The notes under the pieces were generated by a model. The model did no database searches, had not been told where the DNA came from, and saw only the letters and a list, made by a program, of their open reading frames with translations. Source: Candidatus Omnitrophota bacterium (GTDB taxonomy: Bacteria > Omnitrophota > Gorgyraeia > Zapsychrales > Fredricksoniimonadaceae). Taken from it: a DNA stretch of 55,851 nt. The DNA lies in contig CAIVRE010000023.1 of NCBI GenBank assembly GCA_903908245.1, forward strand, positions 1 to 55,851, in the 5' to 3' direction. The position numbers were made by a program, and so were the translations under genes. The stretch's first letter is position 1; each line of letters opens with the position of its first letter. This document shows, piece after piece, positions 1 to 34,214 of this stretch.

Positions 1-2370
1 CCATTTTACCCAAACCAGGATCAAATCTGCAAACTCAATTTTTCCCCAACATGTCCAATCGATGCTGACGCTCTACAGTCCGCGGTCTCCGCGCTGGCCG
101 CCATACCATTGGCGGCGGGAGAATCTTTTGACCCGACATCCACGTGGAGTGTCGTGGCTATTCTTTCTATCGGAGTTCCGGCGCTGGTTATGACTATGAG
201 ATATTGGACGATACAGCATTTCAAGTCGGTCCTACGGAAAACACAGGACCCGAAGGTTTTTTTCAAGGCGGCGGAGTCGTTGCGCTCTTTTGTGAAAGAA
301 GATGTTTGGCGTGATGAACTTCTGGCGCGTTATATGGATATGAACCCCGGGATCCGCGCGGCGGAGCGTGAGCTGTTTTCCAGGTTCGGTCAGATCGATC
401 CTTTATTTCGCTGGCTGGAGAGCAGGAATATCTTTGAGCAATTAAGACATCCCAATGCTCAGGTCCGGGATGGCGCAAAAGCCCTGATGGGGCAATTTCC
501 GTTCACTCCTCTGGAACGGGCCGAGGTCTGTCTTTTAGTGCTGGAAAGGGAATTGGGCCGGGATGTCCCTGCTTCTTTGAATATTGTCCAGGAGAATCTG
601 GCGGATCTTATTTCTTTCAGGAAGAAGGCCCGTTCCGCTTCAGTGGCCATGAATTCCCGGGAGAGGGCTTCGGCCGATTTTTTTGATCAGAAAATGATCT
701 ATATTCTTTCCAGGGTTTTGGGATGGGGGCCGGAGGCGTCTTTCCCTCTTGCCGTCAGCGGGCTTGATGAATTGGCCCCTGGGATGGAAAAGCATATCGA
801 TCTTTACCGTGATATCATTGAATCTTCGCCGAGATCGAAAGTCCGGATGGAGGTCTTTCAGCGCCTTCCGCTTCAAATGCAGAAAGAAATGGGAGACAGG
901 CTTTGGGACCGTTTCCGGGAGCCGCATATGTTCTTTGATGTATCGGTGCGGTTTTTCCTTGATACGGGCCTGGTCGGCCAGGGGCTTTTAACAGCCCGTG
1001 TTCTTGAGATCCTTAAGAAAAATCATTATATGCAGGATCCTCTTCGGGCTCCGCATATCCGGGCGCTTGAGACCCTTGGAGTGAAAGGTTTTTCGCAGGG
1101 CATGAGCCAGCGCCAGTTTGAGCAGGTCATTGATCAGGTCATGGCTTCTCAGCCGGACCGCGCCATGAGCCTTTCCGCTCTTTCTGTCCTGGCCGCGGCT
1201 CCCGTAGATCCGTCGGTGATCGATACGCTGGTGAACAGTCCTGTTGCCTGGGTTGTTGTGGGAGGGGTTGTTCTCGGCGCCTCTGTCGGCAGCGCTTTGC
1301 TGGTCCGGTACTGGAATATCCGGAAGCGTCAGCAACTGTTGTCCCGTGTTCATACCGGCAGCATGCCTTCTCGTATTGACGCGCTTATTGAATACAAAGG
1401 AAAAGTTCAGGAAGGTGCGGCCTATTATGAGTTTCTGGGGCTATTGAACGATCCATCGGCTGTTTTTATTTCCAGCGACCAGGAACGCCTGGAACAAGCC
1501 GGGTTTTCTTTCGGGAGATGGCTGGGTTATGACATGCCGGTCATGCTGATATCGACGGATAGCGAGGTCCGGGAACAGGCCAGGGGCCTTTTAAAGAACA
1601 AGGTTTCGCTGCTTGAGCAGGGGCTTGTACGGATCAGGGCGATCCATCGGGAGTATATGCGTCTTTCGAATACGAGGTATACGTATCGCACCAATGATAT
1701 TATCCTTGAGCTGGTTGATGACCTGTTAAGTGGCCGCAAGATCTTTCAGAATGCGGCCCTGGATCTGGAATTTGAAAAGGTCCTGCTGGAGCTGTTCCCT
1801 GTCGGGGATCTGCGTTCCATGCTCAAGATCAGGGACGCCCTGGTTGAACTGCGCCTGGGAAAGGACACATCCGATGCCAGCAGGACAGTGGTCCTGGGAA
1901 GGGTCAATGCGGAGCTTGGCGGCAAATTCCTGGAAAGGCTCAAACAGCCGTTGCCGGTCATGAACGTGAAGGATGTTGTTGTGTTCTTGTTGAATGTTAA
2001 CATTGGGAATCGGACCTTGATCCTTACGGATGTCATCAGCGTGCTGAGAAAACAGGGGCCTCAGATGGACGCATCTTTGAGAAAGAATTACAGCGATGCT
2101 TTGACGGCGTTGGGTTTGCCCGAGAAGGAGCAATGGCTGCAGGCGCCTTTGCTGGCGAAACCGGACGGGGACCGTCCGGATCCGTCCCAGGATATCAATG
2201 GTGGTATCGATGTCAGCGGCCTGAACGTTGAGCGTTCGGGGAAAGGTGTCGACGTTGTTTTTGATCCCGCCATGTTGACGGGATTTGCCAATGGCACGTT
2301 CAATGGGTTCACCCCCGTTATCGTTGGTTTTACTCCTGCCGGTAATATTCTTTCCGCGTTAGGGTTATGA
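1..2370 (+). CDS. Large modular protein of the GGID-tail family, 5'-truncated by the window; two diverged TM + helical-repeat modules and the conserved C-terminal GGID domain
   Basis: Frame 1 is open from base 1 (ORF track starts at 109). C-terminus GGIDVSG...GFTPVIVGFTP...LGL matches the tails of the ORFs at 16777, 21114 and 30792. A DRAM linker at 1156-1167 separates two similar modules. Confidence 0.75.
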   Translation, partial: PFYPNQDQICKLNFSPTCPIDADALQSAVSALAAIPLAAGESFDPTSTWSVVAILSIGVPALVMTMRYWTIQHFKSVLRKTQDPKVFFKAAESLRSFVKEDVWRDELLARYMDMNPGIRAAERELFSRFGQIDPLFRWLESRNIFEQLRHPNAQVRDGAKALMGQFPFTPLERAEVCLLVLERELGRDVPASLNIVQENLADLISFRKKARSASVAMNSRERASADFFDQKMIYILSRVLGWGPEASFPLAVSGLDELAPGMEKHIDLYRDIIESSPRSKVRMEVFQRLPLQMQKEMGDRLWDRFREPHMFFDVSVRFFLDTGLVGQGLLTARVLEILKKNHYMQDPLRAPHIRALETLGVKGFSQGMSQRQFEQVIDQVMASQPDRAMSLSALSVLAAAPVDPSVIDTLVNSPVAWVVVGGVVLGASVGSALLVRYWNIRKRQQLLSRVHTGSMPSRIDALIEYKGKVQEGAAYYEFLGLLNDPSAVFISSDQERLEQAGFSFGRWLGYDMPVMLISTDSEVREQARGLLKNKVSLLEQGLVRIRAIHREYMRLSNTRYTYRTNDIILELVDDLLSGRKIFQNAALDLEFEKVLLELFPVGDLRSMLKIRDALVELRLGKDTSDASRTVVLGRVNAELGGKFLERLKQPLPVMNVKDVVVFLLNVNIGNRTLILTDVISVLRKQGPQMDASLRKNYSDALTALGLPEKEQWLQAPLLAKPDGDRPDPSQDINGGIDVSGLNVERSGKGVDVVFDPAMLTGFANGTFNGFTPVIVGFTPAGNILSALGL

Positions 2371-2472
2371 TCCAAGGAAAGAGGGCGGATTGTCTTGATT
2401 GCACAAGGCCGGCAGGCAAGGTTATAATATTTAGAAATGTTGTTCGGGCGAGACCTTAAAAGGACGGTGCGA

Positions 2473-3236: not shown

Positions 3237-3342
3237 CCTTTCCTGCTTTAAGAGTTATAATCTCCGATCGTTGAAATGTTCCAGATCCTTTTACGACAAA
3301 TCAAAGTCTAACGTGGTTAGAAACAACAAACGGGAGGGCTTT

Positions 3343-4056: not shown

Positions 4057-4084
4057 GTTATTTGTTTTGGGTTGGATTTATACA

Positions 4085-4124: not shown

Positions 4125-4170
4125 ATTTTAAAATTCCCTGACGGTTGAAATCGTGATATATTCCTTGGTT

Positions 4171-5452: not shown

Positions 5453-5467
5453 AGTCGGGAACGGTTC

Positions 5468-16776: not shown

Positions 16777-19700
16777 ATGTTGCGAAAATTCTTTAAGAAG
16801 ACTGTTTGTTATATAACATTAGCGGCGTTCATTGTTATGAACGCGGGCCAGTCGTATGCCCAGTCTTTAACATTGCCTGCGCCGGGCATTCCGGTGGCAT
16901 TGTCGCAGGCCTTTCAGCCTGTCAATCTTAAAGGCATCAAGATCGATCCTGTCAATCCGCTGAGGTTCGATTTTATTATTGATAAAGGGACCTCCTTCAC
17001 CCCCGGGATGAAGGAGGTTGATTATCGGCTGATCAAATATTTTCTTGCCGCATTGACTGTTCCTGAAAAAGACCTTTGGGTCAACCTTTCGCCTTACGAA
17101 AAAGACCGTATCATCCCCGATGCATTTGGCCTGACGGAAATGGGCCGTGATCTTTTGGGGCAGGATTATATCCTTAAGCAGATCACATCCAGTTTGATGA
17201 ATCCGGATGACAATACCGGCAGGTCTTTTTGGAAGCGTGTTTACGAGGAGGCTTACAGGAAGTATGGCACAACGGATATTCCGGTCGATACTTTCAATAA
17301 AGTGTGGATCGTTCCGCAGGAGGCCAGGGTCTATGAACACAATGGCGCCGCGTTCGTCGTCAAAGCCAGGCTGAAGGTAATGTTAGAGACCGATTATCTT
17401 GCCATGCGTGTTGCGCGTGCAGGGGAGGGTTCCCAATCCTCCCAACAAGAAGCTCCCCGACAAGAAAGTTCCACACAGGACATATCCCGGCAGATCATTC
17501 GCGAGGTGATCCTTCCTATCCTTGAAACAGAGGTCAACGAAGGCCGGAATTTTTCCCGGTTACGGCAGATCTATAACGCCATGATCCTGTCGACATGGTT
17601 CAAGGTGAGTTTGAAGCAGAGCCTTGTCGGCCAGGTTTATGCGGACAGGAACAAGGTCAAGGGTATTGATATCGATGATAAAGATGCCAAGCTCAAGATC
17701 TATGATCAGTACCTTGCCGCGTTCCGAAAAGGGGTCGTTAATATTATTCGCGAGGAGAAAGATACAGTTTCTGACGAGGTTATTCCCAGAAAGTATTTTT
17801 CGGGAGGGTATTCGGCTACTGGTGCCGATGGCACCCGTTTGTCCGAGCTGGTCGGCAGGGATAAGGTGAACAGCCGGGACCGGTTATCCTCATCCGACCT
17901 TGCGTCGTTAACTGAAGGTGATTATTCGGAAGTCACGGTTGATCTCTCGGGTGATCATCGGGGCGCGGCTGTATCCAGGCCAGACATGGCCGCGCAATCG
18001 TCCGGTCATTTGACGGGCCAGGGCCGTGTGCATTTCAAGGATCCGGTGTATCTCAATGAGGCGAGTTCTTTTGCCAATGATAAAAGGTCTTTTCTGGACA
18101 GGCATTATATGCAATGGCAATGGCTTCAGCAGAAAGCCATGCCTTATCTTATCCGTCGGGCACTGGGACGCGCCCAAGAGGCCAAGGCAAGGCCGAGGCT
18201 GGTCGTGGCGGATCTCGGGGCCAGTACGGCCGAGGAAATGGCACGGATATTTTATGAGGTCACAATGGCCCTGGAAGTATCCGGGCAGGTTTTAAATGAT
18301 TGGGACCTGCAGGTCAATGGTTTTGAGATCGATCCGCAGATCGTTGCCGAGGGGAATAAACGGATCGGGGGCAGACAGCCTTTCTTTCGTGCACGCAGTA
18401 AAGAAGAACAGATCATGATCGATGGCCGATATTATGCCGACCGGATCATCGAGCGGTTGAACCAGTATGCCGAGAAATTTCAGGCCAGCGCAAGGCTTTT
18501 GAAGCAGGATATTCTGACGATCCCTTCCGGGGACCTGGCTGACGCGGACCTGGTCGTGTTGAATCACGTCCTGCGGATCTTTAAAGAAGAGGATCGCGGG
18601 GCGCTTGTAAAAAATTTGAGCCTGGACAGCTCCCATGCCATCCTGGCGGTCGGTGATTCATTGCTGGCGGGAGAAGCATGGAAATCCCGGGCGGGGGAGC
18701 ATATTTTTGTTGAGTCAGAAGGTTCTTCCGGAGGGACGCGTTATTCGTTCGGCCTGCCGGAAGAAGCGCTTGATGAAATCGACCTGTCACAGGCTTCCGG
18801 GTCGTCTGACCGTGCCGAGGCCGGCCCTTTGCCGCTCAAGCGGCAGTTGGCTGTTGAGACATATTTGAAATTGCGCAATGACCCTGACCCCGGAAAAGTG
18901 AGGATACGGGACCGGTATGTGATCGATCTTTTATCGGCGGCTTTCAAGTCGCCGAGACTTTTCGGACAATTGTCCGGTTATCTTTACGCCCGGTTGAATG
19001 TAACGACGAGTGATCAGGACAAGAAGGATCTTGTCCAGATATTGGCCTGGATGGGGGATCAGGGATTGCCGAAGTTCCTGGGGACGTTTGGAGAAGGGGC
19101 CTGGGATCTTTCGTTTGATGCCGCGCGGTATATTGACAATGGCCTGACCATTGAGGAAGAATTGAAGGCTGTTGCTCCGCTGGATATCAGGGTTGATCTG
19201 TCATGGATGAGCAAGGGTGTTTTTCAGGATGAGCGCCTTGTTTATGAAAGCAGCCGGGAAGACTTTCTTGACAATGATGTCAGGGTCAAGGTCATGATCC
19301 GCCGCGACGCGAAAGGGAGGCGGATCATTGAAAAAAGATTTACTGTCGACGGAGAGCGGGTCACGAAAGATACCCTGGAAATGGAACAGAAATGGATACA
19401 GGATTATCTGGCGTTGAAGTGGTTTAAAAAGCTTGGGTTCAGGGTCCCGGATGTGGTTTTAGTCCGTGAGGAAGGGGCCCTGCTTTTACGGGAAGTATTT
19501 ATTGAGGGCGCACAGACCATTGAAGAAGCATATCCTCAAAGAGACGGCGATATTCCGTCTTTTGTAAAGAAACAGCTTATTCCTTTTGGTTTGGCCGGGG
19601 TTGCGGCCTTAAGTTATGACATGCATCCTGGCAATTATTTGTTAAGTGGTCTGGACAAGGCGCGGGGGACGGGTGATGTTATCGGCATTGACATGGAGCA

Positions 19701-21027
19701 TTCTTTTGCCCCCTGGCCGGGGAAAGATGCGGAAGATGCTGTTTACGATATGCTTAAAGGGCCGTTCGGGCGAGGGGATGGAAATGTTGAGGAGATGCTG
19801 GGGTTGATGGGATTCAAGGACCTCAGGCACGGGTTCGGGTTGAGCCGGCAGGATCAGGACACATATTATCAATTACGGCGGCTGGCGACCCGGATCGCGC
19901 GTTTTTCTGATGAGGAAATGATCGAAATGGCCAAGGAGGCTTTTTCGCACTGGGGCGGTAAAAAGGATGGGCCGGTGGTCAGGAAATTGATCAACGACTG
20001 GCTTAAGGCCAAGGGAGCAGTGGGGGATTTCTTTATGGTTCCGCCGGTGCAGGCGGACCCCGCGATGAGCCAGTTCAAGGGGCTTATAAATCCGCAGACT
20101 CCTGATTTTTCGAGGATGATCAAACTTGGTAACGGCGGGCAAGGGGATGTTTATCAGGATCCGGATGATCCGTCAGTTTTTTATAAAGAAGCGCGAGCGG
20201 ATCCCCGTGAGATCAGGAGCACCAAGCGTTCGGCCGTGTATCTTCGTCAATTCAACCGGGTAGAGCGTGTGAGCGGTATTCCGGAACTTCTGGAGGTCGG
20301 TGGTGATGGGCGCAGCGGCTTCTGGATGAAATTGCGGGGCATTCCGCAAGGCGTGAGCCTGGACAAGGCTCCGTTGTTCTGGTTCGCCATGCCGATCCGT
20401 CAGAAGATCGATATTGTGACGCAGATCATCCGTATCCTTGAACGATTGCATGGGTTGGGCCTGGTGCATAATGATATTAAGCCGGCGAATATTGTTGTGA
20501 ACAAGGGCGGGGAGGTGATGCTGATCGATTATGGCGAAACAAACAGGATCCGCAAGAATCGCCGGGGTTTTTCACAGGGATATTCTTCCGAGGAGGACCA
20601 GGGCAGTGTCGTGTCCGATATTTACAGCCTGGGCAGGACCATGGCCTATATCTTGTCCGAGCATGATGCGTCAGATCCGGTCTTTGAGGCGCTCGATCCC
20701 GAGGTCGATCGATTGGTCAAAAGGATGACGATGTGGCAGGCGGCGCAGAGGTCGCCGCGCACGATGGAAGGTGTCCGGGAAGAATTAAAGAAGATCGCCG
20801 GCCGTGTGGCGGATCTTGAGCGATCAGGCGTTAGTGATGTGGGGGGTATCGATCTGACGGCAGGCCGGACCGGCCTTCAGATCCTGCGCGATGGCAACGG
20901 CGCACTGATCGCGATGTCGCCGCAGACCATTCAGAATATTGATATTGAAGGCTTCTATCCCGTGATCATTAATATCGTGCCGGTTATAAGCATGAAGGCT
21001 CTTTTGGGCCTTTCCATTTCTCCATAA
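16777..21027 (+). CDS. Large modular secreted protein: conserved N-domain + CheR-like methyltransferase + PI3/4K/HipA-like kinase + Ser/Thr kinase + GGID tail
   Basis: Signal peptide (SYA-Q); N-domain to PRKYFSGG (17808); ADLGASTAEE/GFEID/DLVVLNHVL; DMHPGNYL...IDMEHSF; LGNGGQGDVY/HNDIKPAN/IDYG; GGID at 20842. Confidence 0.8.
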   Translation: MLRKFFKKTVCYITLAAFIVMNAGQSYAQSLTLPAPGIPVALSQAFQPVNLKGIKIDPVNPLRFDFIIDKGTSFTPGMKEVDYRLIKYFLAALTVPEKDLWVNLSPYEKDRIIPDAFGLTEMGRDLLGQDYILKQITSSLMNPDDNTGRSFWKRVYEEAYRKYGTTDIPVDTFNKVWIVPQEARVYEHNGAAFVVKARLKVMLETDYLAMRVARAGEGSQSSQQEAPRQESSTQDISRQIIREVILPILETEVNEGRNFSRLRQIYNAMILSTWFKVSLKQSLVGQVYADRNKVKGIDIDDKDAKLKIYDQYLAAFRKGVVNIIREEKDTVSDEVIPRKYFSGGYSATGADGTRLSELVGRDKVNSRDRLSSSDLASLTEGDYSEVTVDLSGDHRGAAVSRPDMAAQSSGHLTGQGRVHFKDPVYLNEASSFANDKRSFLDRHYMQWQWLQQKAMPYLIRRALGRAQEAKARPRLVVADLGASTAEEMARIFYEVTMALEVSGQVLNDWDLQVNGFEIDPQIVAEGNKRIGGRQPFFRARSKEEQIMIDGRYYADRIIERLNQYAEKFQASARLLKQDILTIPSGDLADADLVVLNHVLRIFKEEDRGALVKNLSLDSSHAILAVGDSLLAGEAWKSRAGEHIFVESEGSSGGTRYSFGLPEEALDEIDLSQASGSSDRAEAGPLPLKRQLAVETYLKLRNDPDPGKVRIRDRYVIDLLSAAFKSPRLFGQLSGYLYARLNVTTSDQDKKDLVQILAWMGDQGLPKFLGTFGEGAWDLSFDAARYIDNGLTIEEELKAVAPLDIRVDLSWMSKGVFQDERLVYESSREDFLDNDVRVKVMIRRDAKGRRIIEKRFTVDGERVTKDTLEMEQKWIQDYLALKWFKKLGFRVPDVVLVREEGALLLREVFIEGAQTIEEAYPQRDGDIPSFVKKQLIPFGLAGVAALSYDMHPGNYLLSGLDKARGTGDVIGIDMEHSFAPWPGKDAEDAVYDMLKGPFGRGDGNVEEMLGLMGFKDLRHGFGLSRQDQDTYYQLRRLATRIARFSDEEMIEMAKEAFSHWGGKKDGPVVRKLINDWLKAKGAVGDFFMVPPVQADPAMSQFKGLINPQTPDFSRMIKLGNGGQGDVYQDPDDPSVFYKEARADPREIRSTKRSAVYLRQFNRVERVSGIPELLEVGGDGRSGFWMKLRGIPQGVSLDKAPLFWFAMPIRQKIDIVTQIIRILERLHGLGLVHNDIKPANIVVNKGGEVMLIDYGETNRIRKNRRGFSQGYSSEEDQGSVVSDIYSLGRTMAYILSEHDASDPVFEALDPEVDRLVKRMTMWQAAQRSPRTMEGVREELKKIAGRVADLERSGVSDVGGIDLTAGRTGLQILRDGNGALIAMSPQTIQNIDIEGFYPVIINIVPVISMKALLGLSISP
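17419..17443 (+). repeat. Degenerate REP-like palindrome within the coding sequence
   Basis: GCAG-GGGAGGGTT-CCC-AATCCTCCC; same position in the protein as the copy at 21792. Confidence 0.6.
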
Positions 21028-21113
21028 AGTGGCATTTTTGAGAATTTTGTGTTATTTTTTACTATCATCTGGGGAGAGTATTGCTTTTTGTTGAGATCTT
21101 TTAAGGGGGGCTT

Positions 21114-24100
21114 ATGTTCTCTGCAGCATTTAAAAGTTCAAGGCTGGTCCGATTTATTTCATTATGGCTTGTTTTTACCCTTTCCCTTCCGTTGCAACAG
21201 ATCCATGCGCAAACGGCCCTGGATTTGCCGGCGCCAGGCACAATGATCGGGATCAGTTCCGCCTATATTCCGGTCATGATGAAGGGTCTCAAGGTCCATC
21301 CTGAAAATCCACTTTTGTTTGATTTTATCCTTGATACAGGAAGATCCGGGCTTAAGACGGACGCAGGGGAATTCAAGGCCGAATCTGAAAAACTCATTAA
21401 ATATTTTCTTGCTTCCATTACGATCAAGGAAGACGACTTATGGGTTAATTTGTCGCCGTATGAACATGATCGCATGATCACGGAAGATCTGGGCAGGACC
21501 GAGCTTGGCCGCGATATGCTGGCCCAGGATTACATTCTTAAACAATTGACATCTTCTCTTATTTACCCTGAAAAGGATCTGGGTAAAGAGTTCTGGAAAA
21601 GGGTTTATGCCCAGGCGCAGGAGAAGTTCGGTTCAACGGATGTGCCGGTAGATACTTTTAATAAAGTCTGGATCGTTGCGGATAAGGCCAGGGTATTGGA
21701 GCGTAATAATACGGCGTATGTCGTCGGGGCCAATTTAAAAGTCATGCTGGAGGCCGATTATCTTGCCATGCGTGTCGCGCCAGTTGCGCATGTAGGGGAG
21801 GGTTCCAAACCCTCCCTCCAAGAACCATCCCCCCAACAAGACGTTCCCACACAGGATATATCCCGGCAGATCATCCGTGAAGTGATCATTCCGGAGATCG
21901 AGAAAGAAGTCAACCAGGGCCGGAATTTTGCCCCGTTACGCCAGATGTTTTATTCCATGATCCTGGCAACATGGTATCGACAGGCGTTGAAAGGGGCTTT
22001 CTTAAATCAGGTTTACAGTGATAAAGCAAAGACAGGTGGTGTTGAATCGGACGATCCGCAGGTCAAAGAAAAGATCTATGCTCAATATCTGGAAGCTTTT
22101 AAAAAAGGATCTTTTAATTACATTAAGGAAGAGGTCAATTCTTCAGGCGAAACTTTCCCAAGGAAATATTTTTCCGGAGGGTTGGCTCCTGATCTGGGTG
22201 TTCATCGGGTCATAAATATTGAAAAAGAACCTCAAGCGGACGATGACCTTTCGGCAGATGGCTCCATGGCCAATGTCCAAACGAATATGGCCGTAACGCA
22301 AGGCCGTAATGAGGCCATGGCGGAGCAGGTTGAGCGCGCGTTCAAGGCGAAGACGGCCGAAGGGTTCGTGGCGGATATCCATAATGATTATCTGGTTGAC
22401 GCTCCGGAGCGGCTGCAGAAGATCGCGACTTATATTACGGATACTGATCCGTATTTTACCAGGAGCATCATGACGCCGGAGCGGCTTACGTCGCAATGGA
22501 CAACGGAAGAGCTGATCAACAGTGCGGGGAAGAAATATACGGTGGATGTCTTGAACGTCCGCGCCGCGAACAGTTCCGCTCGGGGTGTGCCCAAGGGCGG
22601 TATTCGTGCTTTGTTGAATTATCTGGATAAGAGCCCGGAAAAAGAAGGGGCGCGCACGGCCAGTGATCTGATGCGGGATCCGGCGTTCAGAAAGGCTTTC
22701 GCCTGGCTTAATGAATTGGCGCCTACGGAAGGGCAGGTCAGGGCATTTATCCAGAAATGGATCGAGGAAGAGGCCAAGGCTTTATCATTGTGGATGTCGT
22801 TCAAGACCTCTGTTTTGGGGATCCCCCTGGGAGGAGGCAAAGGTGTTTTCTTTGTCGGGCAGATCAGCAAAAATTCCGACGGGACATTTTCAATAGCGGA
22901 TACAGAGCTTTGGCGGGACACGGATCAAGAGAATAATGCGCGGATCTCGCGGAGATATGTCCGGATCCTTTACGCGGCCGAGAGTGTCGGGCCGGATATC
23001 GATGTTCCGGCTCCGGACAAGCGGACGGATGGTGTGTCCATGGGATTTTTGACGGATGAATATATCCTTTTAAACCTGAAGGTGATCCAGAAGCGCGATC
23101 CGGCGCTTTACAACCGCCTAAAAGCGGCTTTGGACACGGCAACGGCAAATAATGGCGGTGTTTATCCGACAACGAGCACGGTCTTGGTGGAAGAGGCCAA
23201 CCGTTATTTGCATGAAACGAATGTGCCGGTGCCGGAATTGGCTGTTTTTACCGGAAAAAAGATCGAGCATGGCGGTGCTTTGGGAAGGACAGAGGCTACG
23301 GGTTTTGGCGTGGCGTCCACGATCCGCAATGTTCTGAAGGCTAAAGGCGTTGACATTCGCGGCAAGACACTTGGGCTTCAGGGGGCCGGAAATGTGGCCC
23401 TGTATGCGGCTCTTCAGGCGGTCCGGGATGGAATGATCGTCCAGATCCTGGCGGATGAAGGGACAACGCTTATCAAGAAAGATGGTTTCTCCGAGAAAGA
23501 GATCCTGGAGTTGATCCGTCGTTTTGAAAAGAACAAGGAAAAGATGTACCAGATCTGGAGGCAGGTTTTCTCTGCCGACAGTGTGGTCGCTGTTGAAGGC
23601 GATCGTGACGCCCAGGGTGCGGCGGTGTTGGAAGCGGATGTCGATGTATTAAGCCCTTGCGCGACCGAAGGGGTCATTACAGAGAAGAACGCCGGGCGGA
23701 TCAGGGCAAAGTTCATTGTTCCCGGTGCAAATGGTCCGATCACGTCGGCCGCATTGAAGATGCTTGAAGTGAATGGCATTATTGTTGTCCCCGACACGTT
23801 AACGAACGCGCGGGGTGTCCTGGTCTCTTATTTTGAACAGGTCCAGGCCTTGACGGGGCATATTTTTACAGCGGAAGAAGTTGCTTTGATCGCCGAGCGT
23901 GTTCATACGGCCGCATTTGCTGTGATGTGGGCTGAAAAGGAGAAAAGAGGGGTTTCTTTGACCGTGGCGGCGGATATTGTTTCGGCGCAGGGGATCATCC
24001 GGGCGCAATATCTGGGGTTGATCAAACGATTTAACGGTGATCTTAAAAAGATCAGTGACGAGCGCGGGTATGGAGAGTCTGAAAACAATCTTCGTCAGCA

Positions 24101-25760
24101 GATCGAAGCGTCGGGCCTGTCGGCTTATCTGAAGGCGATCGGGAACGATTCCCTTAAGATACGCGTTGTCAATCAAGGTGACGAGCCGGCAGTAAAAGCC
24201 GCATTGTCGTCCGCTGATGTTATTATCGCCGGTTCTTCTGTCCAGGCAAAGTCGTCATTCTTTATCAGTAAAAAAATGCTGGGAGAGATCGGGGAAGGGA
24301 AGCGGATCATTGATACGGTTGTCGATCAAACGAATGTTTTTGAAGACGGGAACACGGCACCCGGGGTTTGGCCAGGACAGCCTGCCTGGCTTGATGAACA
24401 CGGGAATTTGCGTTTTACTGTCGCGCATATGCCGGCAGTGTTCGGTTCCGTGGCCGCTGAACTTTTATCGCAGGCGACACAGGCGTTGACAAGAGAAATA
24501 GTCGCCGGAACTGCTCCGCGGAATGTTTCCGGGCTGCGTAGCGGCATCGTTGTTGCTAATGGCCGGTCTGTCAGTCGGGAGGCTCCGGTCACGGATGAAG
24601 AGTTCCTGAACCTGTTCACAACTTCGGATGGCCGGAAACGGACGATCGGTATTCCCAAAGAACGGTGGGCCGGTGAAACCCGTGTTGGCGCTACTCTGGA
24701 GGAGATCAAGGAATTCGTCGCTTCAGGTTATGAGGTCTTGGTCGAGCAGGGAGCCGGGGCAGCCAGCAGGATATCGGATATTGATTTTCAAAGGACCGGG
24801 GCAAAGATCGTTACGCGCAATGGCGTCTGGGGGGCGGATGTGATCCGTAAGGTTAAGTCTCCTTTAGCGGAAGAGTATCAATATTTTCGGCCGGGCATGA
24901 TCCTGGAATCATTTCTTTTCCTTGATCGTCCGGAGAACCAGGAGTTGAAACAGGAATTAACGGGCAAGGGAGTGACGGCTGTCGCTTATGAAGAGGTCAG
25001 GAAGTCGGGGCATCGCACGTTGCTTGACCGGGTGTTCTTTATGGAGGATGTCGGGGCCCCGGAAGATGAAGGGCGTTATATTCTCGATCCAATGTCACGG
25101 GTTGGCGGTTATGTCGCTGTTCTTTGGGCGGCGTTGTATGGCCGGGCGGATGTGAATGGCCGCGGGACAAAGGGATCATACAAAGACCTGGTCGGCGGGG
25201 ATGGGCTTCTTGAGACGTCTGTTGTTCAGGAGCGGCAGTTGCACCTGGACAGATTCCTGGCGAATATCGGGACTCATTTGCAGGAATTTGTCACCCATGG
25301 TTACGGGTTGCCTCCGGGATTGCTTAGGGATACAGGGATGGAGAGCCGGCTGGGCAAGGTCGTTGTCCTGGGCGGGACTTTGACAGCCCGTGAAGCCGCG
25401 TATTTAAGTTTGCTGTTCGGTGCGGAGAATGTTGAAGTGCTTGTTGCCGATGAGAATGAAAAGGACCTTCTGGAGCGACAATTCCGAAAAGCCGGATTAT
25501 TGAGGGATGTTGATCCGGCGGGGGCGGCAGATGATGCTGTAGCGGGAAAACCGGATATTCAGGGTGGTATCGACATGAACGCCAAAAATATGGAAATGGA
25601 TGTGTCCAGAGAAGGCAGAGGGGTCGAGGCCGGGCTTGACCCTGTTATTCTTGAGCAATTCAAGGGCGGTGATTTTTCCGGTGTGGTGCCGGTCATTATT
25701 CGTATCACGCCGGTCGCGAGCCCGATAGCAATTCTGGGAATGGAAGCAAGCCCGCCGTAA
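21114..25760 (+). CDS. Large modular secreted protein: conserved N-domain + Glu/Leu/Phe/Val (glutamate) dehydrogenase + circularly permuted alanine-dehydrogenase-like domain + GGID tail
   Basis: Signal peptide (IHA-Q); N-domain to PRKYFSGG (22181); KGGIR, MSFK, GGGKG, DVPAPD, GRTEATGFG, QGAGNV, GANGP, VSYFE; AlaDH-like IGIPKE...ETRV, KVKSP, PMSRVGG; GGID at 25563. Confidence 0.82.
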   Translation: MFSAAFKSSRLVRFISLWLVFTLSLPLQQIHAQTALDLPAPGTMIGISSAYIPVMMKGLKVHPENPLLFDFILDTGRSGLKTDAGEFKAESEKLIKYFLASITIKEDDLWVNLSPYEHDRMITEDLGRTELGRDMLAQDYILKQLTSSLIYPEKDLGKEFWKRVYAQAQEKFGSTDVPVDTFNKVWIVADKARVLERNNTAYVVGANLKVMLEADYLAMRVAPVAHVGEGSKPSLQEPSPQQDVPTQDISRQIIREVIIPEIEKEVNQGRNFAPLRQMFYSMILATWYRQALKGAFLNQVYSDKAKTGGVESDDPQVKEKIYAQYLEAFKKGSFNYIKEEVNSSGETFPRKYFSGGLAPDLGVHRVINIEKEPQADDDLSADGSMANVQTNMAVTQGRNEAMAEQVERAFKAKTAEGFVADIHNDYLVDAPERLQKIATYITDTDPYFTRSIMTPERLTSQWTTEELINSAGKKYTVDVLNVRAANSSARGVPKGGIRALLNYLDKSPEKEGARTASDLMRDPAFRKAFAWLNELAPTEGQVRAFIQKWIEEEAKALSLWMSFKTSVLGIPLGGGKGVFFVGQISKNSDGTFSIADTELWRDTDQENNARISRRYVRILYAAESVGPDIDVPAPDKRTDGVSMGFLTDEYILLNLKVIQKRDPALYNRLKAALDTATANNGGVYPTTSTVLVEEANRYLHETNVPVPELAVFTGKKIEHGGALGRTEATGFGVASTIRNVLKAKGVDIRGKTLGLQGAGNVALYAALQAVRDGMIVQILADEGTTLIKKDGFSEKEILELIRRFEKNKEKMYQIWRQVFSADSVVAVEGDRDAQGAAVLEADVDVLSPCATEGVITEKNAGRIRAKFIVPGANGPITSAALKMLEVNGIIVVPDTLTNARGVLVSYFEQVQALTGHIFTAEEVALIAERVHTAAFAVMWAEKEKRGVSLTVAADIVSAQGIIRAQYLGLIKRFNGDLKKISDERGYGESENNLRQQIEASGLSAYLKAIGNDSLKIRVVNQGDEPAVKAALSSADVIIAGSSVQAKSSFFISKKMLGEIGEGKRIIDTVVDQTNVFEDGNTAPGVWPGQPAWLDEHGNLRFTVAHMPAVFGSVAAELLSQATQALTREIVAGTAPRNVSGLRSGIVVANGRSVSREAPVTDEEFLNLFTTSDGRKRTIGIPKERWAGETRVGATLEEIKEFVASGYEVLVEQGAGAASRISDIDFQRTGAKIVTRNGVWGADVIRKVKSPLAEEYQYFRPGMILESFLFLDRPENQELKQELTGKGVTAVAYEEVRKSGHRTLLDRVFFMEDVGAPEDEGRYILDPMSRVGGYVAVLWAALYGRADVNGRGTKGSYKDLVGGDGLLETSVVQERQLHLDRFLANIGTHLQEFVTHGYGLPPGLLRDTGMESRLGKVVVLGGTLTAREAAYLSLLFGAENVEVLVADENEKDLLERQFRKAGLLRDVDPAGAADDAVAGKPDIQGGIDMNAKNMEMDVSREGRGVEAGLDPVILEQFKGGDFSGVVPVIIRITPVASPIAILGMEASPP
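21792..21816 (+). repeat. Intact GTAG REP-like palindrome within the coding sequence
   Basis: GTAG-GGGAGGGTT-CCA-AACCCTCCC; one base different from the copy at 28208. Confidence 0.75.
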
Positions 25761-27586: not shown

Positions 27587-28224
27587 TGTTAAGCTCTTTG
27601 CGGAGCTGGGTTGACCGGATATTTTATTCTTCAGCCGGAGAGACCTTGCGGGGCAAGGCTCTCCGGCTTAATGCGATCTACCGTTCTTTGGACAAAGAGA
27701 TATTTCGCTTTAAGGCCGCTTCGAGGATCGCGTGTCCCAGTCCTTGCGGCCAATGCTGTGTTAATTCAACCGTAGAAGCTTCCGAACTTGAAATGCTTCC
27801 GATGGCTTTTGAGCTTGTCCGTCTGGGTAAGGCGGATGAATGGTACGGCAAAGCGGAAGCGAAGGATTTTGAAGGGCAATGCGTTTTTTACAGCTCGAAC
27901 GACCTTTTGGGGCAGTGTTCGTATTATGCGTTTCGTCCTTTGGTATGCCGCCTGTTCGGTTTTGCCGGGAACAGGGATAAATACGGCCGGCCGCGCCTGG
28001 TGACCTGCGGGCGGATCAAGAAAGAGCACCCTCTGGGGATGGAACAGGTTCTGGAGAATGTTGCCAGTGGCCGGATCGTTCCGCCGATGATGAGTGACCT
28101 GGTCATGCGCGTTTCATCGGTGGATCCCGCGCTTTCCCGTGAAAGTATTCCCGTGAATATGGCGTTCAAGAAAGCTGTCGAGCGGGTTTTGTTAGGTCAA
28201 CAGTTGAGTAGGGGAGGGTTCTAA
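27583..28224 (+). CDS. YkgJ-family cysteine cluster protein
   Basis: CxxxCGxCC, then CVF...[15 protein letters not shown]. Confidence 0.85.
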
Positions 28225-28232
28225 ACCCTCCC
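28208..28232 (+). repeat. GTAG REP-like palindrome overlapping the YkgJ-family gene stop
   Basis: GTAG-GGGAGGGTT-CTA-AACCCTCCC; contains the TAA stop at 28222-24. Confidence 0.75.
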
Positions 28233-28259
28233 TTGAGAAATTTTAAAAGGGGATTTCCA

Positions 28260-30645: not shown

Positions 30646-30647
30646 GG

Positions 30648-30704
30648 AAAAAACCGGGACACATTGCATTTTTGTGTAAAAAATGCAATGTGTCCCGGTT
30701 TTTT
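30648..30704. repeat. Perfect 26-bp inverted repeat (terminator-like / GGGACA-TGTCCC element)
   Basis: AAAAAACCGGGACACATTGCATTTTT - GTGTA - AAAAATGCAATGTGTCCCGGTTTTTT immediately after the msrA stop. Confidence 0.85.
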
Positions 30705-30791
30705 GTCTGGGCTTCTTGGATGGTTTTTTAACTATTTATAATTTATACTTATTAAAGGTTTGGGCAAGGGTGTATTTACAGGAAAAGGGCT

Positions 30792-33700
30792 ATGATTTAT
30801 CTGGATTTCTTCAAGAAAAGCATTACATGGCTTGTTCTTGTGGCTTTTTTAGTCACCGGGGTGCCAGGGGCTTATGCCCAGGAAGCCCTTATACTTCCTG
30901 CAGCAGGAAGCCGTTTGGCATTGAGCCCCGCGTTTGTTCCGCCGTTACTTAAAGGGATCAAAGTTTATCGTAACGACCCTTTCCGTCTTGATTTCATTCT
31001 TGATCAAGGCGATGCCGTTGACCCGGGCCCGCAGTTGAAAAATGAATCGGATCGTTTGATCAAATATTTTCTTGCCTCGCTCACTGTTCCTGAAAAAGAC
31101 TTGTGGGTCAACCTGTCGCCTTATGAAAAAGACCGTATTGTCCCCGATGCCTTTGGCCAGACGGAAATGGGGCGTGATCTTCTGGCCCAGGATTATATTC
31201 TCAAACAGATGACCGCGTCCGTTATTTATCCGGAAGGAGATGTTGGCAAGGTTTTTTGGGCAAAAGTCTATGCGGAAGCCCAGAAACGTTATGGCACGAC
31301 AGATATGCCGGTCGATACGTTCAACAAGGTTTGGATCGTCCCTGAAACAGCGACGGTTTATGAGAATAGAGATGCGGCATTCGTTGTTGAAAGCAGACTT
31401 AAGGTCATGCTGGAATCCGATTATCTCGCGCAGGAACAAAATGCTGGGATCCCAATGCCGGCCGAAGTCCCTCATGGGAATGTCCAGTCGCACAACGATA
31501 CGAAAGAGATCCTCCGCGAGATCGTTATCCCCATTCTTGAGAAAGAGATCAATGAAGGGAAGAATTTTGCTCAATTGCGTCAGGTTTACAATTCCCTTAT
31601 TCTTGCCGCCTGGTATAAACGAAAGATAAAGAAAAGTTTGATGGGAGAGGCCTATGCGGATAAGAACAAGACCGCAGGCGTTGAGATCAGCGACAAGAAA
31701 GAAAAAGACAGGATCTGGGCGCAGTATGTTGAGGCGTTCAAGAAGGGCGTTTTTGATCTGGTCAAAGAAGAAAAAGACGAGCTGTCCGGCGAAACCGTTC
31801 CGCGCAAATATTTCTCCGGCGGTGTCGGCGCGTATCGCATTGGAAGTGTTCTGCGGGAGACTTCGGACCCATCCATGCTGCCGTCCGATAGCCGAGGGAG
31901 GATGGTGATCGCGGCCAGTTTTAAGGTGGCGGATGCTTCGGCCTCTTCGGATCTGTCCGGGGATGACCGTGTTATGCGGGCCTCTGCCGCAGGATACAAG
32001 AAGTACCTGGAGGCGAAGGTCCGTTTGAGATGGGAGGACCTTCCCCGGGAGGCCAGGGAAATCATTGAACAGGCGGATATGGAAAGCCTTGTTGTTATGG
32101 CACAGAATGCCGCGGGTGAGGCGGATTATTTGTTTGAGTACGGATTTGTCGCTTTAAGAAAGATCCTTACCCTGGAAGAGATCAGAGCATTCTGGCCGGA
32201 TCTGGTCAGGATGACTGCGGCTTCAAGAGAGCAATCAGGCGAGCTTTTTCATCGAGGGCTTCCGGCATTAAAACAGGCATTGGGGAACGATCTGTTCAAG
32301 GCGTATTGGCCTGGGCTGACGAATGCGGTCCAGATTGCAGGCTGGTATTCTTCGGTTTTTCTGCAGTTCGCTTTCTCGTCGGTACGAAATATTGTTACAG
32401 CAGAGAACATTAATGAGGTGGGAGAGAGCCTCTCGGGCATTTCCCGATTGGAAGGCGGCGATCCCGGAGCATTTTATCAGTATGCGCTTCCTGCTATTGC
32501 CAGAAGGATCAAGTCCGTCAGTGATTTAAAGTTTTGGATCGATCGGCTTAAGCAGGCGGTCCGATCGATGGACATTGAACAGGAAGGGCTGTTCGTCGGG
32601 TATTTGGATAATGATCGTTTTGTCGATGATCTTCAGGCCATGAAGGATGAGACCGCGTCCAATCCTTTCGGGATCGCCCGCCTTTTGCTGGAATATGCGG
32701 CAGGCCGGCGGGAGGTTTTGCATATATTCCTTGAGCCATGGGCGTTTAGCCATGCCGGCGAGTTAACGCCGGCGCTTTCGGAACAGATCGCGTTATCTTT
32801 TCAGATGACACAGGAATTGAAGTATTTCTTTTATTATATCTCTGTTAACAGCCATACTCGCCAGGATACCCGCCGGAAAGTAAAAGATATTTTAAAAGCC
32901 CTTAGATCGCGCAATGTTTTTTCTTTGCATGGGCCTGTAGAAAGGTTGCTGGCCAAAGGAGAAAAAAGGGTCCTTATCGTTCAGAACATCGATGATGGCG
33001 TCGGGGATGAACAGGTCCGTGTGCTGCCGATCTTAAACGGGCTTTTGGCGTTGAATCCGGAGCTTAACGTGAAAATTGTTACCGGGAAGCCCGATCTATA
33101 CAATCACCCGAGGGTGACGGTGCTTTCGATAGATGAGGTCTTTTCAGCTGTTTTGAAGCATGCCATTGATATTCAGACGGCATCGTATGATGCGGTGATC
33201 AATTTTTATGATGAGAATCTGCCCTCGTATAGCCGGTCGCTGGAGATGGCTGTCAGGGCCCGCGATAAAGGAAAGATTTTTATCACGACAGGACGGGGGC
33301 GGGAAGATACTTTTATTTTTGATAAAGTTTTTGTTGAAGGCTCGGAATACGCTTTATCGTTAGGGTTGAACCAGGCAAGGGTTGACAGTGTGTATGAGCC
33401 GGGGTTTCGTCTTTTGGCGGAATTGGGGCTGCCTGTTTCAGCCGGCGGTGTTGTCTCCCGGGAAGGCTCGGCCATGACGGCTCTTCTTTATCCTGTCGCC
33501 GAAACGCGGTGGCGCGAGGCCATGACAGCGTTGAACAATGAGAAACATACAAGCCCGGTTATTCTTTTTAGCCCTTATGGTGGTCAATTGGAAGCGAAAG
33601 GATTTACTCGTAGTGAGGCGGATCGCGAAGAATTGCGTGATATTGTTACAGAGATCGTGAAGAAAGGGAACAAGGTTGTTGTACTCGCTAATGGGACTTC

Positions 33701-34214
33701 CTGGGGTACCAGGGAAACTGCCGAAGCGTTACAGGCAAGCCTTCCGGATGATGTCCGTTCGGAAGTCTTTGTCGTTGATCCCGGAAAAGATTTTCGGCTT
33801 CCGACTTATTTTTCCGCGTATGCGGATCTTAATTTGATGGTCGAAGGCAAGATGGCTCACACGGCAGGGAATATCGGGAAACCATTCCGCGTATTTTTAA
33901 AACCTGGCGCCAGCCAGCGGAGATGGATCCCGTATGGCCAGGCAGAGCATGGCGTTGTCGATGATATCAGCCAGGTCCTGGGCCGTCTTCAGGCACAATG
34001 GACCGCCAGGTCCGATCGGGCGACGGTCATGAAGGGTGGTATTGACCTTGATCCTGATAGAATGAATTTGAATATGAAAGATCCGGTCGAGCCGCTGGAA
34101 TTTAATTTTACCCGGGTCCAGTTCGAAGCGCTCAATGCCGCCTCCGGCGTTAGCCCTGTAATCATAAATATCATCCCGCTGGAAGACCTTCGTACATTCC
34201 TTTCTGTCCCGTAG
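30792..34214 (+). CDS. Large modular secreted protein: conserved N-domain + helical domain + GT9 (heptosyltransferase-like) domain + GGID tail
   Basis: Signal peptide (AYA-Q); N-domain to PRKYFSGG (31823); RVLIV...GVGDEQVRVLPILNGL...PELNVKIVT and ADLNLMVEGKMAHTA resemble GT9; GGID at 34035. Confidence 0.78.
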   Translation: MIYLDFFKKSITWLVLVAFLVTGVPGAYAQEALILPAAGSRLALSPAFVPPLLKGIKVYRNDPFRLDFILDQGDAVDPGPQLKNESDRLIKYFLASLTVPEKDLWVNLSPYEKDRIVPDAFGQTEMGRDLLAQDYILKQMTASVIYPEGDVGKVFWAKVYAEAQKRYGTTDMPVDTFNKVWIVPETATVYENRDAAFVVESRLKVMLESDYLAQEQNAGIPMPAEVPHGNVQSHNDTKEILREIVIPILEKEINEGKNFAQLRQVYNSLILAAWYKRKIKKSLMGEAYADKNKTAGVEISDKKEKDRIWAQYVEAFKKGVFDLVKEEKDELSGETVPRKYFSGGVGAYRIGSVLRETSDPSMLPSDSRGRMVIAASFKVADASASSDLSGDDRVMRASAAGYKKYLEAKVRLRWEDLPREAREIIEQADMESLVVMAQNAAGEADYLFEYGFVALRKILTLEEIRAFWPDLVRMTAASREQSGELFHRGLPALKQALGNDLFKAYWPGLTNAVQIAGWYSSVFLQFAFSSVRNIVTAENINEVGESLSGISRLEGGDPGAFYQYALPAIARRIKSVSDLKFWIDRLKQAVRSMDIEQEGLFVGYLDNDRFVDDLQAMKDETASNPFGIARLLLEYAAGRREVLHIFLEPWAFSHAGELTPALSEQIALSFQMTQELKYFFYYISVNSHTRQDTRRKVKDILKALRSRNVFSLHGPVERLLAKGEKRVLIVQNIDDGVGDEQVRVLPILNGLLALNPELNVKIVTGKPDLYNHPRVTVLSIDEVFSAVLKHAIDIQTASYDAVINFYDENLPSYSRSLEMAVRARDKGKIFITTGRGREDTFIFDKVFVEGSEYALSLGLNQARVDSVYEPGFRLLAELGLPVSAGGVVSREGSAMTALLYPVAETRWREAMTALNNEKHTSPVILFSPYGGQLEAKGFTRSEADREELRDIVTEIVKKGNKVVVLANGTSWGTRETAEALQASLPDDVRSEVFVVDPGKDFRLPTYFSAYADLNLMVEGKMAHTAGNIGKPFRVFLKPGASQRRWIPYGQAEHGVVDDISQVLGRLQAQWTARSDRATVMKGGIDLDPDRMNLNMKDPVEPLEFNFTRVQFEALNAASGVSPVIINIIPLEDLRTFLSVP

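Follow-up and report, generated by a model that had tools for sequence, protein, structure and literature searches.

The window analysed here is a 55,851-nt stretch of DNA from a Candidatus Omnitrophota bacterium (contig CAIVRE010000023.1 of assembly GCA_903908245.1), corresponding to contig C23 of a 34-contig, 2.16-Mb genome that is 92% complete. It carries four members of a family of large proteins with two constant ends, a head of ~320 amino acids (aa) behind an apparent signal peptide and a C-terminal tail of ~60 aa, which enclose a variable middle. The head occurs in 26 genes of the genome, the tail is coupled to it, the middles turn over between species, and neither end belongs to a known family. 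The best explanation, which we hold with about even confidence, is that these are Sec-exported modular proteins in which tail and head form a clasp. The docking of the tail on the head is a structure prediction.

Architecture of the family

Three intact open reading frames (ORFs) in the window share their first ~345 and last ~60 residues: P0001 (16777-21027, 1416 aa), P0002 (21114-25760, 1548 aa) and P0003 (30792-34214, 1140 aa). The contig begins inside a fourth, P0004 (1-2370), whose 5' part, with any head it may have had, lies off the contig start and whose visible 789 aa end in the same last ~60 residues. An earlier note on this DNA had described four paralogues, with a conserved N-terminal domain on the three intact ORFs and a GGID tail on all four. 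Both ends were confirmed, the three heads being 57–58% identical in pairwise comparison (E 1e-119 to 1e-129) and all four tails being recovered by profile. The family is thus real, but four was an undercount, as the genome has 26 head-bearing genes in addition to the truncated P0004. The head was N-terminal every time in these ORFs, which ranged from 517 to 5,163 aa, and the paralogous heads were 43–58% identical at the protein level. Including P0004 and one split gene, the family comprises 35,614 aa, or ~107 kb, equal to 4.9% of the genome.

The tail contains the motifs GGID(L) and G(F/L)xPVIIxIxP. A hidden Markov model (HMM) built from 21 tails and applied at E<=1e-3 matched 25 ORFs of the genome, namely 23 of the 26 head ORFs, P0004 and the second half of a split gene; no other headless ORF of the genome had a tail. 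One head ORF had a degenerate GGVD tail (E 0.16), and another (C13:55-2442, locus L090; 795 aa, HATPase_c cargo) had a head and no tail. The split gene (C15:2237-5248, locus L100) consists of a head ORF of 517 aa and a tail ORF of 483 aa with 6 bases between them, and split or head-only ORFs were also seen in other genomes (L006, L013, L017). Across 80 loci from other genomes, the tail closed 62 of the 70 head ORFs that are complete at their 3' end, and the tail-only ORFs were either cut at contig ends or located downstream of a split.

The alignment of 106 heads contained 28 invariant and 57 nearly invariant columns. AlphaFold2 (AF2) predicted a head of three beta-hairpins packed on about nine helices, with a predicted local distance difference test score (pLDDT) of 87.5 and a predicted template modelling score (pTM) of 0.85. 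No Pfam or NCBIfam family was found for the head in P0001–P0004, and Pfam applied to the 106 heads gave no meaningful family (best DUF896, E 0.0027, in 20 of 106). The best match of the head profile among PDB sequences had an E value of 0.38. In Foldseek against the PDB, the best row was NheA (E 0.018, template modelling (TM) score 0.10–0.11, root-mean-square deviation 21 Å); ClyA/Nhe alpha-pore-forming toxins, characterised by an elongated helical bundle with a beta-tongue, made up the top rows and were not among the rows of VIA-align, where the best Z was 3.8 over 48,161 chains. The ESM Atlas returned unnamed Omnitrophota clusters only. No fold match was therefore found with the whole head as the query, which is short of proof of a new fold.

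The tail modelled alone gave a pTM of 0.21, with one five-residue helix and no strands, as would suit a peptide ligand, and the possibility that it is an autonomous domain was rejected since AF2 gives it no fold. Pfam and NCBIfam had no match on the tails of P0001–P0004. The earlier note had been unable to assign either end to a named family, and the sequence and fold searches agree with it; the modelling that it had proposed for both ends yielded a confident head lacking a PDB fold match and a tail that is unfolded on its own. The head itself ends in a nearly invariant PRKYFSGG followed by I, V, L or Y (17790-17811, 22160-22187 and 31805-31832), a stretch that resembles the GGI(D) of the tail.

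The leaders have a Lys/Arg n-region, a hydrophobic core of 10–15 residues and a small-x-small site (..YA/Q or ..HA/Q) before a conserved Gln, and a purine-rich Shine-Dalgarno-like stretch lies ahead of the ATG of each of P0001, P0002 and P0003. Export was called with a crude sequence heuristic of our own, which was passed by 26 of 26 family genes of the genome, in line with the Sec-type signal peptides that had first been noted on the three window ORFs. In the alignment of 106 sequences, the leader region has no consensus residue and closes on a conserved A-Q. A variable leader in front of a strongly conserved domain is the pattern of a cleaved signal peptide, and from these features we infer Sec export of the family proteins with cleavage of the leader. 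The public gene call for P0001 (ESM Atlas record; cluster P0156, 1396 aa) starts at Met21, which removes the leader (window 16777-16839); the family's export signal may thus go unseen in automated annotation.

Internal hydrophobic 19-mers were present in 12 of 28 family ORFs, in several cases right behind the head and in one ORF 13 times, and were absent from P0001, P0002 and P0003. One family member has a TolC-like OEP domain. On the basis of sequence, the members with internal hydrophobic segments or the TolC-like OEP domain probably stay in the envelope of the producing cell.

Predicted docking of the tail on the head

Since head and tail as a rule do not occur apart, the head was modelled in complex with the tail. 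The complex prediction scored 0.78 (runs 0.80, 0.78 and 0.77), and the best of three controls scored 0.00. In the calibration set, 58 of 80 solved complexes and 2 of 110 mismatched pairs scored as high, counts that apply only roughly here because the complex was predicted from our own alignments. Contact agreement across the docking runs was at least 49%, and the pLDDT of the partner (the tail) was at least 46.

On the tail, the confident interface spans GGIDL plus the ten residues behind it. On the head it covers residues 100-107, 126-134, 175-188, 204, 207 and 262-278, which include the motifs DLWVNLSP, QDYILKQ, NKVWIVP and LRQ. The GGID peptide is thereby predicted to dock onto the most conserved surface of the head; invariant residues accounted for 10 of 43 positions at the interface vs 18 of 281 elsewhere (Fisher p 0.0013).

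Covariation between the two ends was analysed in 189 non-redundant head-tail pairs. The strongest inter-domain signal linked head positions 278, 279, 265 and 269 with tail position 54, and other covarying pairs linked head positions 55, 68 and 70 with tail positions 45-47, 65 and 73. The head positions covarying most with the tail (278, 265, 184 and 269) fall in the predicted interface, and variable interface positions outscored the rest for covariation (Mann-Whitney p 0.02, 12 vs 159 positions). The pairs form two matched classes. In the first, head 279 is Leu, 278 is not Lys and 265 is Ile, and tail position 54 is a large residue; in the second, head 279 is Ile or Val, 278 is Lys and 265 is Val, and tail position 54 is Ala, Ser or Thr. 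Concordance of the classes is ~95%. The covariation is mostly co-inheritance of these two classes and is counted as weak support.

Given the predicted complex, the ends would be better read as a pair binding each other than as two independent export signals. Each protein has four parts: an apparently cleavable signal peptide, the head, a fast-evolving middle and an unstructured tail. In the mechanism that we propose, the tail would serve as a ligand of the head, with GGIDL lying against the beta-hairpin at residues 175-188 in a seat lined by the four invariant motifs named above. With the tail docked on the head, the two constant ends can be read as a clasp, for which there are two options. 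Each protein could be closed on itself in a loop, perhaps once its C-terminus leaves the translocon, or the proteins could be linked head to tail in mixed chains at the cell envelope.

Cargo of the variable middles

An all-against-all BLASTP comparison of the 28 middles, which range from ~150 to ~4,800 aa, found only two related pairs. This agrees with the mutually unrelated middles of the earlier note, and its proposal of constant ends around interchangeable cargo also held across homologues, in which the middle is freely variable. The middles are either dark or built of nucleotide-, phospho-sugar- or DNA-handling enzyme families. A Pfam match was obtained in 9 of the 28 family ORFs, the 5,163-aa member being scanned without its head, and the cargo so identified comprises the kinase, the dehydrogenases, a starch-synthase-like GT5, methyltransferases, DUF1861, HATPase_c, UDPGP, UPF0489 and the TolC-like OEP. 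No recognisable cargo was present in 17 of the 24 family proteins scanned on the other contigs of the genome.

The cargo assignments first made for the window fared unevenly. For P0001, a protein kinase was confirmed (Pkinase, Pfam E 2.9e-10, with PDB kinases matched too), and the CheR-like methyltransferase was supported indirectly only, by 43% identity of residues ~433-661 to a paralogue with sub-threshold CheR/Methyltransf matches. The glutamate and alanine dehydrogenases of P0002 were both recovered by Pfam and NCBIfam, as Glu/Leu/Phe/Val dehydrogenase and AlaDh_PNT. The GT9 assignment of P0003 was not borne out by Pfam, NCBIfam or PDB sequences and is a language-model likeness only (score 0.95, 175 of 256 features); neither P0003 nor P0004 had an HMM match. 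Across the whole genome, the sole ELFV dehydrogenase and the sole Hanks-type Pkinase matches are the cargo of the adjacent genes P0002 and P0001, and a canonical free-standing glycogen synthase accompanies the GT5 copy of the family.

Among relatives in other genomes, at least one precomputed Pfam domain was present in 48 of the 120 listed proteins and none in 72, and 24 of the 35 relatives scanned here had no Pfam domain. The cargo recognised includes enzymes of central metabolism (PGK, GAPDH, transketolase/E1-like, PGM/PMM, NDK, EPSP-synthase-like, proline dehydrogenase and PPDK_N/PEP-utilisers), of DNA handling (MutS domain V ATPase and SNF2 helicase) and of signalling (PP2C with kinase, ABC1 kinase with M48 peptidase, and Response_reg), together with GNAT, HAD, methyltransferases, WD40 and pentapeptide domains. 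The named families use ATP, NAD(P), S-adenosylmethionine, phospho-sugars or DNA. The earlier observation that the cargo is of cytoplasmic type is extended by PGK, GAPDH, MutS, SNF2 and response regulators, and the presence of such enzymes and of kinases behind a signal peptide sharpens the paradox.

The 936-aa cargo of P0001 was found in none of four same-genus genomes, with a partial kinase match in 1 of 25 relatives. For the cargo of P0002, partial matches at 36–37% identity were found in two relatives; the other matches were short free-standing dehydrogenase genes at ~30%. By these sequence matches, cargo is conserved neither between species nor within the genus.

Distribution and secretion genes

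A full HMMER pass over 1.84 billion representatives placed 7,971 cluster representatives in the head family at E<=1e-3 and 6,152 at E<=1e-30, and a word-indexed search returned 5,027 proteins at E<=1e-30 within a length band of 778–2,478 aa. The family was present in 37 of 41 close relatives, with 10–65 matches per genome in the family-level lineage of the window and 0–14 in other families of the order. In a phylum sample, 70 of 301 genomes matched at E<=1e-10, all of them of one class, that of the window. The HMM survey of copy number and taxonomic range suggested in the earlier note thus gave 26 genes in the genome and a class-limited range in the phylum. One other family had 1–6 divergent copies in 29 of 41 genomes. 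The largest open frame among relatives was 6,720 aa. Distant single-copy versions were 1,120–4,891 aa long, with a GGID motif near the end and housekeeping neighbours; an ancestral context was sought through two of them (G133 and G135), and only housekeeping neighbours were found.

By submitter label, the best 80 public loci were 61 Omnitrophota, 18 Planctomycetales and 1 Elulimicrobium, and the family has so far been found almost only in genomes labelled Omnitrophota. The locus labelled Candidatus Elulimicrobium (L052, DYOU01000048.1; Patescibacteria group in the NCBI taxonomy) has three consecutive family genes. Either its label or bin is wrong, or the family extends past Omnitrophota.

When the ORFs within 6 kb of the 28 family ORFs were clustered, no neighbour family recurred at more than 2–3 loci save antisense shadow ORFs, which bears out the earlier statement that immunity-like genes are not evident next to the family. 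Secretin (PF00263) genes number 7 in this 2.16-Mb genome and 4–11 in every one of the 41 relatives, which is an unusually high count of outer-membrane channels for secretion or pili in genomes so small. The secretin number was rejected as a correlate of the family: it was in that range in all 41 relatives with or without the family, and the four relatives without it had 4–7, the same range as carriers. The search for co-occurring secretion genes that the earlier note had proposed accordingly gave no secretin count that tracks the family. The genome also has a BamA homologue. The head and tail are not mentioned in the parts consulted, supplements aside, of three works on Omnitrophota (PMC10066038; 10.1101/2023.11.21.568195; 10.64898/2026.06.07.730766), and literature searches for GGIDL, 'GGID motif', WVNLSPYE and PRKYFSGG gave unrelated papers only.

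Interpretation and alternative explanations

Several observations weigh against the clasp of Sec-exported proteins. The export call rests on a heuristic, the public gene call of P0001 lacks the leader, and topology is not uniform, given the 12 of 28 ORFs with internal hydrophobic segments. The docking is the model's own confidence, with an uncertain tail fold (pLDDT 46–48), and the confident interface takes in only the GGID half of the tail, the PVIIxIxP half lying outside though conserved. Any functional surface should carry conserved residues, which means that the Fisher test gives no specific indication of the tail as its ligand. On the head tree, 18 changes of tail class are counted vs 62 with shuffled labels, and an independent-pairs test of head-tail co-evolution (8 pairs) was not significant. 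A MutS ATPase, an SNF2 helicase, GAPDH and response regulators have no obvious use outside the cytoplasm, so a location in the envelope leaves the cargo unexplained.

Where the cargo would act can be stated only tentatively. Assembly in the envelope or outside the cell is one candidate, in our view somewhat doubtful. The chemistry of the cargo (ATP, NAD(P), DNA) argues for a cytoplasm-like site of action, and on that ground delivery into another cell is likewise given a modest probability. In a more far-reaching reading, of the same modest probability, the two ends would be a self-contained docking code by which dozens of exported enzymes per cell are joined in mixed chains or kept latched until they reach a target; these nanobacteria would thereby have an extracellular or injected 'second cytoplasm' of glycolytic, nucleotide, DNA and signalling enzymes for exploiting other cells.

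The delivery explanation, put forward in the earlier note, takes the constant ends as a chassis for bringing enzymes out of the producer and into the host's or prey's cytoplasm, where they would rewire the victim, the family being the effector arsenal of a host-dependent nanobacterium. It is a real contender, though we think it improbable on balance, and the clasp could be accommodated in it, for instance as a latch holding the cargo closed during export. The uniform signal-peptide result (26 of 26), the species-specific repertoires, with the cargo of P0001 and P0002 absent or partial in relatives, the intact kinase and dehydrogenase signatures of these two proteins and the 10–65 matches per genome in the lineage would all suit an arsenal. 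The cargo is overwhelmingly cytoplasmic in type (PGK, GAPDH, transketolase, PGM/PMM, NDK, MutS_V, SNF2, PP2C with kinase, Response_reg), and the seven secretin genes and the BamA homologue mean that outer-membrane exits exist. According to PMC10066038, one Omnitrophota member that has been cultured preys on or parasitises an archaeon, and many others have been proposed to depend on hosts. However, no injection device is linked to the family, secretin counts are alike in carriers and in the relatives that lack it (4–7), and no conserved neighbour gene was found. The multi-pass hydrophobic and TolC-like members look like residents of the producer's envelope, and cargo was not recognisable in 17 of 24 proteins scanned from this genome or in 72 of 120 listed relatives.

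It is unlikely that the ends are instead two sorting signals for an unseen export or anchoring machine, comparable to the C-terminal domain of type IX secretion cargo, with the docking a modelling artefact. Such signals would be consistent with the strict coupling of head and tail to the signal peptide, the fact that the tail closes the protein in 62 of 70 complete relatives, its disorder when modelled alone and the conserved PVIIxIxP half outside the confident interface. However, no candidate machine is adjacent to the genes, and the tail has neither the transmembrane helix and basic cluster of sortase/exosortase-type signals nor an NCBIfam or Pfam match. A head of 320 aa with 28 invariant columns far exceeds what a targeting signal needs, and the docking score exceeds the best of the three controls by 0.78.

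Less probable still, and in our estimation quite improbable, is that the proteins are membrane-tethered enzymes of the cell's own metabolism, with a hydrophobic N-terminus that is an uncleaved anchor or belongs to the fold, cargo in the producer's cytoplasm or an unusual internal compartment, and ends that cluster enzymes. The only ELFV dehydrogenase and Pkinase matches of this 92%-complete genome are family cargo, core glycolytic enzymes occur among the cargo, and the leader helix is predicted by AF2 at pLDDT 92–96. Giant proteins of the phylum also have domains of metabolic enzymes together with signal peptides or transmembrane helices, in the sections available of 10.64898/2026.06.07.730766. 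Against this, in 26 of 26 genes the positive charges stand ahead of the short hydrophobic core and not behind it, with a small-x-small site next, which is the signature of export and not of a cytoplasm-facing anchor, and sequence conservation, strong in the remainder of the head, is missing from the leader. The canonical glycogen synthase exists beside the GT5 copy, and the turnover of cargo between species is unlike housekeeping metabolism.

The fusions are almost certainly not chimeras from head repeats mis-joined in metagenome assembly. Several family genes do lie at contig ends (C1:59, C13:55, C14:340, C23:1), and loose ends of other samples' contigs pile up in the conserved head at 16990-17186, the place for an assembly graph to branch from one paralogue to another. 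Yet 16777-18081, 17482-18518 and 20510-24279 are covered, with 0–1 differences, by contigs from two other samples of the same study, independent assemblies show this architecture in 62 of 70 complete genes, and paralogous heads at 43–58% identity are too divergent to mis-join. These contigs bridge the head-cargo junctions of P0001 and P0002, the join between the two genes and the cargo-tail junction of P0002. No single bridging contig is shown for the cargo-tail junction of P0001, and some bins have no read cover in runs X5 and X6. Since other samples' contigs run across the junctions checked, the fusions hold as real, which settles the doubt about chimeras raised in the earlier note.

We regard the family, with its proposed clasp, as a system of a new kind whose predicted mechanism can be tested. 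The family takes up about 5% of coding capacity and reaches up to 65 matches per genome in relatives while remaining unnamed by curated libraries, and it accounts for some of the assembly breaks in these metagenome-assembled genomes. It also gives a handle on a puzzle of the Omnitrophota, the occurrence of central-metabolism, DNA-handling and signalling enzymes behind export signals. If docking is real, a receptor of 320 aa and a peptide of ~20–60 aa would form a compact encoded pair for assembling arbitrary enzymes, of interest to cell biology and protein engineering. If the docking-code reading is true, proteins would be assembled on a principle not seen before, and an uncultured phylum would have an effector system of a new class; delivery to other cells, if true, would provide the first effector catalogue for the phylum and a direct route to its hosts.

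Features and neighbouring genes of the window

Positions of the family features in the window, all of them on the + strand, with the evidence for each
Feature	Position	Strand	Evidence or remark
P0004 family member, 5'-cut	1..2370	+	two internal hydrophobic segments; no Pfam match
P0004 GGID...PVIV C-terminal tail	2200..2367	+	tail HMM E 4.6e-16
P0001 signal-peptide-like segment, aa 1-28, site SYA/Q	16777..16860	+	Shine-Dalgarno-like GGGCGGGG just upstream
P0001 conserved head, aa ~29-345	16861..17811	+	AF2 pLDDT 87.5, pTM 0.85
P0001 cargo segment	18073..18759	+	43% identity to methyltransferase-like region of paralogue C6:169331-172540
P0001 Hanks-type protein kinase cargo	20095..20697	+	G-loop GNGGQG, HNDIKPAN and DYG intact; Pkinase HMM
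P0001 GGID...PVIINIVP tail, aa 1356-1416	20842..21024	+	tail HMM
P0002 signal-peptide-like segment, aa 1-32, site IHA/Q	21114..21209	+	AAGGGGGG upstream
P0002 conserved head	21210..22187	+	sequence comparison
P0002 Glu/Leu/Phe/Val dehydrogenase cargo	22710..24008	+	ELFV_dehydrog_N and ELFV_dehydrog; GGGKG intact
P0002 alanine dehydrogenase/PNT-like cargo	24171..25013	+	C domain precedes N domain; Pfam, NCBIfam
P0002 GGID...PVIIRITP tail, aa 1484-1548	25563..25757	+	tail HMM
P0003 signal-peptide-like segment, aa 1-29, site AYA/Q	30792..30878	+	GGAAAAGGG upstream
P0003 conserved head	30879..31832	+	sequence comparison
P0003 GT9-like cargo (candidate)	32889..34001	+	language-model features only; no HMM support
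P0003 GGID...PVIINIIP tail, aa 1082-1140	34035..34211	+	tail HMM

Almost all genes of the window are on the + strand. Between the family ORFs lie ordinary genes, among them those for an SPFH protein, a methyltransferase, a B12-radical SAM enzyme, an O-antigen-ligase-like protein, a CusCBA-type efflux pump, PEP carboxykinase, MsrA and an ABC transporter. The interval 30650-30700, directly after msrA and ~90 bases upstream of the P0003 gene, contains a long perfect hairpin with a T run behind it. This element looks like an intrinsic terminator, in which case P0003 would probably have its own promoter.

At 28221-30011, two overlapping ORFs lie on opposite strands (28233-30011, +, 592 aa; 28221-29858, −, 545 aa), neither with a Pfam match. 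Three adjacent ORFs in 35035-40614 are mutually paralogous and also paralogous to G000:C33:78196-80220, near another family member; two of them have spermidine-synthase-like domains in long, probably membrane-bound proteins. The region 43141-54258 holds an electron-bifurcating-type [FeFe] hydrogenase set (NuoE-like, NuoF-like and HydA-like) with the maturases HydF and two radical-SAM proteins, and an aspartate-ammonia-lyase/fumarase-type gene among them.

Comparison with known systems

In logic, the family resembles cohesin-dockerin pairs and donor-strand complementation; its layout recalls that of type IX cargo, polymorphic toxins, MARTX and effector arsenals. Of their defining features, none of those that could be checked is shown by the family. 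As in the cohesin-dockerin system of cellulosomes, a short C-terminal module on many enzymes would dock to a receptor domain, and unrelated enzymes would be assembled outside the cytoplasm. The two differ in that there is no relation in sequence or fold and no Pfam match on head or tail, that each family protein carries one receptor and one ligand with no multi-cohesin scaffoldin, and that the cargo of the family is mainly not carbohydrate-active and its binding is predicted. Dockerin-type giant proteins do exist in Omnitrophota, in the accessible part of 10.1101/2023.11.21.568195.

In the donor-strand complementation of chaperone-usher and type V pili, as is predicted here, a terminal peptide adds strands to the sheet of a receptor domain, and a likeness of this kind would permit head-to-tail chains of Sec-exported subunits. 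However, the head lacks the Ig-like fold of pilins and matched nothing in the PDB, usher and chaperone genes are absent near the family genes, and the subunits carry 150–4,800 aa of enzyme cargo. Type IX cargo shares with the family a Sec leader and a conserved C-terminal element around diverse cargo, encoded by many paralogous genes per genome. Type IX secretion is known from Bacteroidota. The type IX C-terminal domain (CTD) is a beta-sandwich of ~80 aa, whereas the tail here is ~60 aa and unstructured alone, with no Pfam or NCBIfam CTD match, and type IX cargo has no conserved head of 320 aa.

Polymorphic toxins such as the contact-dependent inhibition (CDI) and Rhs systems, and MARTX toxins, likewise combine constant trafficking parts with swappable enzymatic parts, which in MARTX are also in the middle. 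The earlier note had drawn this comparison, and none of the membership features examined supported it. CDI and Rhs toxins have their variable toxin domain at the very C-terminus, behind a conserved trafficking region, and a cognate immunity gene directly downstream. In the family the variable part lies inside the protein and the conserved tail closes it, no immunity gene or recurrent neighbour was found, and the cargo is not of toxin families. The glycine-rich RTX-type repeats at both ends and the C80 cysteine protease of MARTX toxins had no match in P0001–P0004 (Pfam and NCBIfam, E<=0.01). MARTX toxins use type I secretion without a Sec leader, in contrast to the Sec-type leader called in 26 of 26 family genes, and export would be by this leader rather than by type I, V or VI secretion.

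The LPXTG, PEP-CTERM and GlyGly-CTERM signals consist of a motif, a transmembrane helix and a basic cluster, a combination that the tail does not have: the tails end in FLG/LGL-type residues without an Arg/Lys cluster, and a hydrophobic 19-mer overlaps the tail in 4 of 28 ORFs. Autotransporters have a C-terminal beta-barrel of ~250 aa or more, compared with an element of ~60 aa with no autotransporter Pfam match in this family. Large species-specific arsenals of modular effectors, such as the Dot/Icm substrates of Legionella, and the PE/PPE families are similar in having tens of paralogues per genome, which take up about 5% of coding capacity, in cargo with kinases, phosphatases, methyl- and glycosyltransferases, and in repertoires that differ between close species. 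Those systems export from the cytoplasm without Sec leaders via known machines. The family also differs from them in having two conserved ends, not one.

The nearest biological kin are the giant proteins of Omnitrophota themselves ('Archaeovorins' and 'multi-enzyme metabolic clusters'), which share with the family both the phylum and an odd mix of enzymes behind signal peptides or transmembrane helices. In the sections available of 10.64898/2026.06.07.730766 and 10.1101/2023.11.21.568195, these proteins are of at least 10,000 aa and have N-terminal regions without identifiable domains. The family differs in length, as its members are mostly 500–3,000 aa with a maximum of 5,163 aa in this genome. 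The giant-protein repertoire given in the same sections comprises methyltransferase, HATPase_c, GNAT, HAD, starch synthase, PGM/PMM, Response_reg and PPDK_N, and all of these domain types also occur as cargo of the family. The kinship is therefore one of shared cargo repertoire, not of size.

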